Assembly (NCBI GenBank): GCA_000004695.1
Contig: CM000152.2
Coordinates: forward strand, 2,816,001 to 2,880,000
Reading direction: 5' to 3'
DNA length: 64,000 bases
Origin: Dictyostelium discoideum
Taxonomy: Eukaryota
Positions 54,185-54,350 of the stretch are shown here, in pieces. The position numbers were made by a program, and so were the translations under genes. Every line of letters starts with the position of its first letter. The first letter of the stretch is position 1. Below the pieces are notes generated by a model. The model was not told the origin of the DNA, did no database searches, and saw only the letters and a list, made by a program, of their open reading frames with translations.

Positions 54185-54350
54185 ATTGGTTAGAGAGTGT
54201 TGTTACCTCTTTGGTTCCAACAAAAATGAATTGATCAAAAGATAATGCTTAACCACAAGCTTTGACGATTCTTGAACGAGCAGTTTCAGTGAATCTTAAT
54301 GATTAAACAAACAGTGAGTAGTCTAATCTATATTTTTTATTTTCAATTAA
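54185..54350 (-). pseudogene. Genomic fragment of rpl18 covering the last ~30 bp of intron 3 plus most of exon 4; ~85% identical to 22150-22330
   Basis: The reverse complement reads 'gattaattgaaaataaaaaatatag attagactactcactgtttgtttaatcattaagattcactgaaactgctcgttcaagaatcgtcaaagcttgtggttaagcattatcttttgatcaattc...ggtaacaacact'. The rpl18 gene reads 'gattaattgaaaataaacaaaatatag attattagactgcccaaaactcactgtttgtgcattaagattcactgaaactgctcgttcaagaatcgtcaaagctggtggtaaagcattatctttcgatcaattc...ggtaacaacact'. Intron sequence is included, so this is a DNA-level copy rather than a processed one. Confidence 0.7.

Follow-up and report, generated by a model that had tools for sequence, protein, structure and literature searches.

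rpl18 and the strip behind tRNA-Arg(ACG)

The window, that is, the whole stretch of 64,000 nucleotides analysed here, is AT-rich Dictyostelium DNA. It carries on the plus strand the ribosomal protein gene rpl18 (eL18) and a decayed tandem copy of the 3' end of this gene, and on the minus strand a tRNA-Arg(ACG) gene followed by a strip of retroelement-derived sequence that includes a short piece of rpl18 (Table 1). The 181-aa product of the reconstructed rpl18 model matches the Pfam family Ribosomal_L18 (PF17135, 3e-78) and corresponds exactly to eL18 of D. discoideum AX4 (EAL67470.1); the introns of the model measure 193, 97, 66, and 78 nt, intron 3 occupying 22114-22179 and exon 4 the 217 nt of 22180-22396. 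The window belongs to an AX4-like lineage, because the locus of strain ACTFIT (L012) is 99.6% identical to it over 11484-32542.

Table 1. Positions in the window of rpl18, of its partial copies, and of the features behind tRNA-Arg(ACG).
Feature	Position	Strand	Remarks
rpl18 (eL18) parent gene	21555..22534	+	five exons, four introns; gene model from splice signals
rpl18 exons	21555-21557, 21751-21837, 21935-22113, 22180-22396, 22475-22534	+	reconstructed model
Donor segment	22153..22327	+	final 27 nt of intron 3 and first 148 nt of exon 4; start possibly 22128-22146
Tandem partial rpl18 copy	23095..23401	+	decayed exon 5, 3'UTR and flank; significant core 23188-23335
3' flank X, TAACAACAAATGAAATTAATTTTTATG (27 nt), and A-rich run	54144..54185	-	A8TA5T in the window; A18 in ACTFIW, A13 in ACTFIR
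rpl18 fragment	54186..54374	-	certain core 54186-54352; 54353-54374 possibly intron-derived, with an 11-nt local duplication
Old TRE3-like reverse-transcriptase (RT) fragment, 307 nt	54370..54676	-	ORF2 aa 467 to ~578; one frameshift, stop codons
97-nt stretch between TRE3 target-site duplication and RT fragment	54677..54773	-	no assigned source
Target-site duplication of the full-length TRE3, TAATATTATAT	54774..54784 and 60032-60042	-	exact, 11 bp
Full-length TRE3-type non-LTR retrotransposon	54789..60031	-	ORF1 59872-58622, ORF2 58517-54918, A26 tail 54814-54789
External B box (exB) of tRNA-Arg, GGTTCGATTCC	60079-60089	-	
tRNA-Arg(ACG)	60124..60197	-	landmark targeted by TRE3; orthologous tRNA in L001, L002, L013

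Read along the minus strand, the order of the strip is tRNA-Arg(ACG), the exB box, a full-length TRE3, 97 nt, a TRE3-like RT fragment, and the rpl18 piece. The full-length TRE3 begins 93 bp downstream from tRNA-Arg in the same orientation and codes for a 416-aa ORF1 and for an ORF2 of 1199 aa that includes an RVT_1 domain and shares 99% identity with a D. discoideum protein cluster of 79 members; on grounds of abundance, the element presumably belongs to subfamily TRE3-A. A second TRE3 copy (L014), 98.8% identical over 60029-54782, lies 84 bp behind a tRNA-Thr gene, again in the same orientation. Both distances agree with the integration rule of TRE3, by which an element inserts 40-150 bp downstream from a tRNA gene and points in its direction of transcription (PMC5911963), and so does the distance of 122 bp at which the rpl18 fragment itself lies behind the tRNA gene in strain ACTFIW.

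The RT fragment retains 57% amino acid identity in blastx (E 6e-19), aligns at the nucleotide level to 56799-57120, and is equidistant (57-59% aa) from both TRE3 subfamilies retrieved, the L006 element being truncated; the 97 nt that precede it have no significant similarity to TRE3 ORF2. It is joined directly to the rpl18 piece within an A-run, both being sense on the minus strand, with the RT homology stopping at ~54370-54375 and the rpl18 homology beginning at 54352-54374. This junction is confined to the AX4-like lineage. From the poly(A) run of the full-length TRE3 (54789-54814) to the rpl18 fragment the distance is 415-437 bp, close to the ~450 bp given in the preliminary description of this locus. 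On the other side of the fragment, flank X, which is unique in the window and among 14 fetched loci, and its A-run are followed by ~0.5 kb of AT-rich DNA with more A-runs. A candidate 13-bp target-site duplication pairs ATTAATATTATAT (60044-60032) with ATTATAATTATAT (54143-54131), although the match is 11/13 with an empirical P of ~0.04 in AT-rich DNA. A C2/RING gene is situated 2.6 kb from the fragment, which lies upstream of this gene on the same strand. An Rfam scan of 53000-55200 returned no match.

Extent, decay, and age of the fragment

Aligned against itself by blastn, the window pairs 54192-54352 with 22319-22153 on the minus strand at 83.8% identity over 173 columns (E 4.65e-47), and Smith-Waterman extension of this match pairs 22128-22327 with 54374-54186 at a score of 217, compared with a mean of 26.5 and a maximum of 40 in 500 Markov shuffles and a maximum of 56 in 542 other window tiles on both strands. 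The fragment keeps the final 25-27 nt of intron 3 (54352-54328, with a 2-nt gap), including the junction of ATATAG with the exon, and the first 148 of the 217 nt of exon 4 at ~87% identity; ~25 further intron nt are possible, with AAAACAGA at 54371-54364 matching intron 3. It is inverted relative to the parent gene. The extent of ~30 nt of intron 3 and ~140 nt of exon 4, the identity of ~85%, and the reverse orientation that were first reported are thereby borne out.

A deletion of 7 nt, an insertion of 4 nt, and an in-frame TAA (54251-54249) destroy the coding capacity and leave no frame open. Local alignment with 200-nt flanks, the window-wide self-BLAST, and the comparison of all lineages reveal no homology beyond the ~190 nt on either side, and the check for a longer alignment that the preliminary description had called for leaves the fragment a short piece. 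At the equivalent of 22327 it ends inside exon 4 without a poly(A) at that end, and the A-rich run follows 27 nt later, after sequence that is not derived from rpl18. Junction identities amount to 1-2 nt at either boundary, in flanks that are AT-rich and ~16% diverged.

The fragment is colinear with its genomic parent, intron sequence included, as an unprocessed pseudogene is. It is not a processed pseudogene because intron sequence is present, the point already made in the preliminary description; an mRNA 3' end with poly(A) is likewise missing. We are highly confident that the fragment is a dead, unprocessed partial pseudogene, made up of the end of intron 3 and two thirds of exon 4 and without function of its own. 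As such it is a real but ordinary object, a further case of a pseudogene derived from part of a gene and lying where retroelements land.

A second, tandem partial copy lies 0.6 kb from the rpl18 gene, where 23188-23335 (reaching to 23401) aligns with 22523-22659 (reaching to 22722) at a score of 97, against at most 53 in the controls. In the window, this match is restricted to the last four codons, the 3'UTR, and the flank, and the body of exon 5 has no significant match. In the ortholog of this copy in D. cf. discoideum ACTFIY (L005 4710-5114), exon 5 is intact and stands between 37 nt of intron 4 and the 3'UTR. This ortholog has 76% identity to the copy in the window, shares its diagnostic indels, and sits where an inversion of the GH9 segment has its breakpoint; no such copy was found in strain ACTFIR (L007). 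For ACTFIY, this placement of the rpl18 3' end fits an inversion with staggered breaks, since such inversions duplicate sequence at their breakpoints. The earlier proposal of a tandem, decayed copy of the terminal exon at 23095-23300 is thus sustained by the score and by the intact exon 5 of ACTFIY, although within the window the body of that exon is unmatched. Two partial copies with intron sequence thus go back to rpl18, at least one of the two being clearly a DNA-level product, and the view that this gene has shed partial copies at least twice holds for the fragment at 54 kb together with the tandem 3' copy.

The age of the fragment can be read from orthologous loci, which were fetched via the neighbouring genes for ACTFIW (L002), ACTFIR (L004), D. 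citrinum (L013), and D. firmibasis (L001). Two D. cf. discoideum loci fall outside this comparison, since that of ACTFIZ (L003) ends 460 nt short of the fragment and that of ACTFIY (L005) ends in the C2/RING gene. ACTFIW and ACTFIR, both labelled D. discoideum, reach only 81-83% identity to the window in intergenic DNA, against ~93% in genes. Both carry the same rpl18 fragment, ~122 bp behind the tRNA gene in ACTFIW and ~118 bp in ACTFIR. The fragment copies of the two lineages have in common the derived substitutions GCTGG>GCTTG, TTTCGAT>TTTTGAT, and TTCGC>TTCA, the 5' motif TTAxTTAAGGA, and an identical 3' flank composed of X, the A-run, and ATTATAATTATATCATCA, and therefore go back to one ancestral insertion. 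Each copy also has private changes: the window copy has lost 7 nt and gained 4 nt, and the ACTFIW/ACTFIR copy has lost 5 nt and a further 29 nt between the repeats CGCTTT and CACTTT. Between the lineages, the fragments are ~80% identical to each other, against 81-83% for the neighbouring intergenic DNA, and the copied stretch of the functional rpl18 exon 4 is identical. The fragment decays at the neutral rate.

ComC, the C2/RING gene, and tRNA-Arg are again neighbours in D. citrinum, with 159 nt from exB to a conserved intergenic anchor, and this orthologous strip of 159 nt contains no rpl18-derived sequence; the similarity between the sequence after the A-run and the stretch just behind exB in D. 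citrinum is not significant (P ~0.13). The strip of D. firmibasis consists of ~1.1 kb of unrelated sequence that starts with a weak match to the C-terminus of TRE3 ORF2, and it contains no rpl18 fragment either. In length, the orthologous strip ranges from 159 nt (D. citrinum) over ~670 nt (ACTFIW, ACTFIR) to 6452 nt (the window). At the five sites that are informative between the rpl18 genes of D. discoideum and D. firmibasis, the fragments show the D. discoideum state. Presence in both D. discoideum lineages and absence from D. citrinum and D. firmibasis place the origin in the D. discoideum stem, later than the split from D. citrinum and earlier than the separation of the AX4-like from the ACTFIW/ACTFIR lineage.

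The strip behind the tRNA gene in ACTFIW and ACTFIR holds neither a full-length TRE3 nor the RT fragment, and its ~80-nt spacer has no significant similarity to TRE3 or to the RT fragment of the window. A look-alike of the TRE3 3' tip with poly(A) occurs in this spacer and is not significant. Since these strains have the fragment without the TRE3, the full-length element is a later arrival specific to the AX4-like lineage, in which its insertion shifted the rpl18 fragment ~5.7 kb from the tRNA gene. The picture of a gene piece transplanted into an existing retroelement cluster is contradicted by this order of events, and the statement that the piece abuts an old RT fragment is right for the window (RT homology 54676-54370) and fails in ACTFIW and ACTFIR. 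Similarly, the separation of 32 kb from the donor is correct for the window and does not represent the original distance. It amounts to ~27.7 kb in ACTFIW, and in D. firmibasis, whose fetched locus includes both, rpl18 lies ~15 kb from the tRNA gene with only two ComC genes and the C2/RING gene in between; the value of the window is inflated by the TRE3 (5.3 kb) and by the expansion of the ComC array, which counts five copies in the window versus two in D. firmibasis. From rpl18 to the tRNA gene, order and orientation are the same as in D. firmibasis.

Possible origins of the fragment

The preliminary description left the choice between ectopic gap repair, template switching onto a pre-mRNA, and a segmental duplication later split by retroelement insertions. 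Ectopic break-associated repair would fit best, template switching fits the known LINE chimeras poorly, and a large segmental duplication finds no homology in the flanks. Tentatively, we infer that the fragment is a DNA-level patch from break repair in the target strip of TRE3. A chromosome break would have occurred in the strip just downstream of tRNA-Arg(ACG), which the TRE3 endonuclease may be expected to cut repeatedly, and it would have been mended with filler DNA, a short internal stretch of rpl18 that was copied or captured as DNA and set in inverted, possibly together with a piece of a TRE3 element in the same event. Such a patch, neither selected for nor against, would persist and erode. 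It is favoured because the piece is internal at both ends, contains intron sequence, and has its donor in cis, with an empty strip in D. citrinum, and because rpl18 has another DNA-level partial copy. Insertions templated by other loci are, moreover, an established result of break repair (PMC8421209). Against the patch stands the donor distance of 15-30 kb, the insertions described in that work having been copied from within ~100 bp of the insertion site. No diagnostic microhomology is seen at either junction, in flanks that are AT-rich and old, and the argument from a donor in cis is subject to ascertainment, as the preliminary description could recognise only donors inside the 64-kb window. 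Furthermore, the TRE3-like orientation, the 122-bp position in ACTFIW, the A-rich run, and the 11/13 match of the 13-mer also fit an insertion of the retrotransposition type.

These features would be expected if the TRE3 reverse transcriptase, primed on a polyadenylated RNA (X and its A-run), had jumped to unspliced rpl18 pre-mRNA, which could be a nascent transcript, and then to TRE3 RNA, leaving a tripartite insert of RT fragment, rpl18 fragment, and X with a poly(A) tail. In favour of such an insert, transcripts of ribosomal proteins are abundant, position and orientation conform to the TRE3 rule, and in the window the rpl18 piece is joined straight to the RT fragment, both being sense; the A-rich run lies 27 nt past the rpl18 part in both lineages, and there is the candidate target-site duplication. 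Double template jumps by LINE reverse transcriptases are also documented to yield tripartite chimeras (PMC2104539). A chimera of this kind is nevertheless unlikely: the presence of the intron demands an unspliced template, the rpl18 part does not carry its own poly(A) tail, and both acceptor points are internal, one in mid exon 4 and the other in the middle of the RT domain. To our knowledge, the junctions of known LINE chimeras fall at the 3' ends of acceptor RNAs. In addition, the RT fragment is missing from ACTFIW and ACTFIR, the 97 nt that precede it in the window are not detectably derived from TRE3, the target-site duplication is no more than marginally significant in AT-rich DNA, and a donor in cis would be a ~0.2% coincidence for a trans-acting RNA unless a nascent transcript is invoked. 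That the fragment belongs to a single tripartite TRE3 RT retro-insertion, made via a nascent unspliced rpl18 transcript of the neighbouring gene and then TRE3 RNA, is quite improbable. The fragment may also be the remnant of a larger inverted segmental duplication that brought the 3' half of rpl18 behind the tRNA gene and was whittled to ~190 bp by deletions and TRE3 insertions before the lineages split. The region is prone to rearrangement, with ComC in two copies in D. firmibasis and five in the window and with the ACTFIY inversion carrying the rpl18 3' copy at its breakpoint; both partial copies begin inside an intron and are DNA-like; and deletions of microhomology type have occurred independently in each lineage, such as the 29-nt loss in ACTFIW/ACTFIR. 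The chance of such a trimmed duplication is nonetheless small, because no lineage has homology past ~190 bp where an identity of 84% would be easily detectable, both end points are common to the two lineages so that all trimming would have to precede their split, the gene order and orientation of D. firmibasis are kept with no trace of an inversion, and an inversion that broke the single, essential rpl18 gene would be lethal.

A functional element, either the source of a small or antisense RNA that controls rpl18 or part of the region upstream of the C2/RING gene, is suggested by the persistence of the fragment in two lineages and by its location upstream of that gene on the same strand. It is very improbable, given that the fragment evolves no slower than the surrounding intergenic DNA (~80% vs 81-83%), has different indels in each lineage, including the 29-nt loss, is not found in D. 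citrinum and D. firmibasis despite the same gene neighbourhood, is sense rather than antisense to read-through from the tRNA gene and TRE3, and has no Rfam match. Other candidate sources were rejected. An inversion by staggered breaks would have destroyed the single rpl18 gene at its breakpoint, and the gene order is that of D. firmibasis. A lariat intermediate, considered because both copies begin 25-50 nt upstream from a 3' splice site, would fit poorly with boundaries that lie upstream of the likely branch sites and with a tandem copy that runs past the likely poly(A) site. The window contains a second inverted pair of similar size, 14999-15169 and 47556-47377, with 84% identity and an offset of ~32 kb. 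A common event or local copying process for both pairs was discarded, as their order and orientation do not fit a single inverted duplication; in addition, the 83-aa open frame matches four different short proteins and so belongs to a small dispersed family.

Significance and comparison with known systems

Alone, the rpl18 fragment matters little, being a neutral relic of an essential gene that does nothing detectable. As a dated marker, it indicates that the strip behind a Dictyostelium tRNA gene gathers host-gene filler besides TRE3 copies, and that such filler can predate and outlast the retroelements that now adjoin it. The AX4-like and ACTFIW/ACTFIR lineages have old insertions in common and differ in the TRE3 occupancy at the same tRNA gene. 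Should many intron-bearing pieces of genes in cis be found genome-wide in such strips, they would point to a specific break-repair signature of TRE3 endonuclease activity. If, instead, the tripartite RT reading were true, tRNA-gene-targeted retroelements of Amoebozoa would mobilise host RNA by template switching, for which we know of no earlier evidence, and a nearby highly transcribed gene could feed pre-mRNA into target-primed reverse transcription.

Among known systems, the fragment resembles unprocessed pseudogene fragments in being a truncated genomic copy with intron DNA and a splice junction, in carrying frame-breaking indels and a stop, and in drifting neutrally. Unlike these, it is ~190 bp long, inverted, dispersed over 15-32 kb rather than tandem, and located precisely in a retroelement landing zone. 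With LINE template-switch chimeras, of the U6-L1 type or tripartite (Gogvadze et al. 2007, PMC2104539), it has in common the head-to-tail arrangement in one orientation beside non-LTR sequence, the A-rich 3' end, and the possible short target-site duplication, the direct fusion in the same orientation being found in the AX4-like lineage only. It departs from them in that the rpl18 part has an intron, both template junctions are internal, and the element part is an internal piece of the RT domain instead of a 3' end and is missing in the sister lineage; the 3'-terminal joins with poly(A) that mark such chimeras are replaced by an rpl18 part that ends in mid exon 4 and a TRE3 piece (aa 467 to ~578) that lies 5' of it.

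Yeast breaks capture retroelement cDNA and other DNA. The rpl18 fragment is like such break filler and like templated insertions of the MMBIR type (PMC8421209) in being a short internal piece of another locus that adjoins a retroelement piece, at a site that is empty in the outgroups D. citrinum and D. firmibasis and that was probably exposed to repeated breaks. It differs in having its donor 15-30 kb away, versus ~100 bp, and no recognisable junction microhomology at ~16% divergence. Lastly, the TRE3 insertions behind Dictyostelium tRNA genes (PMC5006619, PMC5911963) consist of element sequence, whereas the fragment is host-gene sequence; it nonetheless occupies the same strip in the same orientation as these insertions and in the window is embedded in TRE3-derived sequence.

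Rearrangement and gene content around the ComC-like array

In D. cf. discoideum ACTFIY, the GH9 segment lies in inverted orientation (locus L005, 984-5114, against window 17365-23475), and a partial rpl18 copy, consisting of the 3' end of intron 4, an intact exon 5 and the 3'UTR, is found at the inversion breakpoint, adjoining the first ComC gene. This copy resembles either a breakpoint duplication or the outcome of an inversion break between the gene and an older tandem copy.

The units of the ComC-like array are 85-94% identical in the window, and the corresponding position in D. 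firmibasis harbors two copies versus five, so the array has expanded recently. D. firmibasis, D. purpureum and Polysphondylium each have a clear ortholog of the C2/RING/IBR ORF, which lies on the minus strand of the window; a protein search returned no D. discoideum ortholog protein among its matches, although genes are called at the same position in the D. discoideum strains ACTFIW and ACTFIR.

Features in the window and at related loci
Feature	Position	Strand	Remarks
Direct tandem repeat	window 101-340 and 368-605		~240 bp, 86% identity; start of window
Short inverted pair	window 14999-15169 and 47377-47556	+ and -	84% identity, ~180 bp, offset ~32 kb
Five ComC-like genes, tandem array	window 25001-47100		domains EGF, TIG, ComC supersandwich
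C2/RING/IBR ORF, intact, 848 aa	window 48348-50894, probably on to 51566		
5'-truncated RT ORF (RVT_1)	window 60298-62031	+	~100 bp upstream of tRNA-Arg, opposite orientation
ATCCAAT(A)ATTCTGC + A11-14	L002 (ACTFIW) 22440-22475; L004 (ACTFIR) 21075-21105	minus	spacer between exB and rpl18 fragment
Long (TAA)n array	L001 (D. firmibasis) 7334-7507		at end of apparent 5'-truncated TRE3 3' end

A second inverted pair in the window

The short inverted pair could be read as a copy made in cis; this reading was rejected because an open frame of 83 aa at window 14876-15124 matches four distinct short predicted proteins (P0132-P0135), which share the motif SEKENETKSQQATLENEIY.LKLID, and the sequence is therefore a member of a small dispersed family. 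The 15-kb copy is confined to the AX4-like lineage; the 47-kb copy occurs in the window and in ACTFIW and is missing in ACTFIR, ACTFIY, D. citrinum and D. firmibasis.

Retroelements flanking the tRNA-Arg gene

In ACTFIW and ACTFIR, the spacer between the external B box (exB) of tRNA-Arg and the rpl18 fragment contains ATCCAAT(A)ATTCTGC followed by A11-14, which looks like the TRE3 3' tip AATCCAATATT plus poly(A), a likeness that is not statistically significant; this stretch may be a TRE3 insertion with extreme 5' truncation, perhaps accompanied by a deletion at the target site. In D. firmibasis, the element that ends in (TAA)n has the appearance of a TRE3 3' end left by 5' truncation; it starts ~97 bp behind the tRNA-Arg ortholog, and its blastx match to the ORF2 C-terminus is weak (E 0.4). 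Lastly, the RT ORF on the other side of tRNA-Arg in the window occupies a TRE5-type position, so this tRNA gene has been hit by retroelements from both sides.
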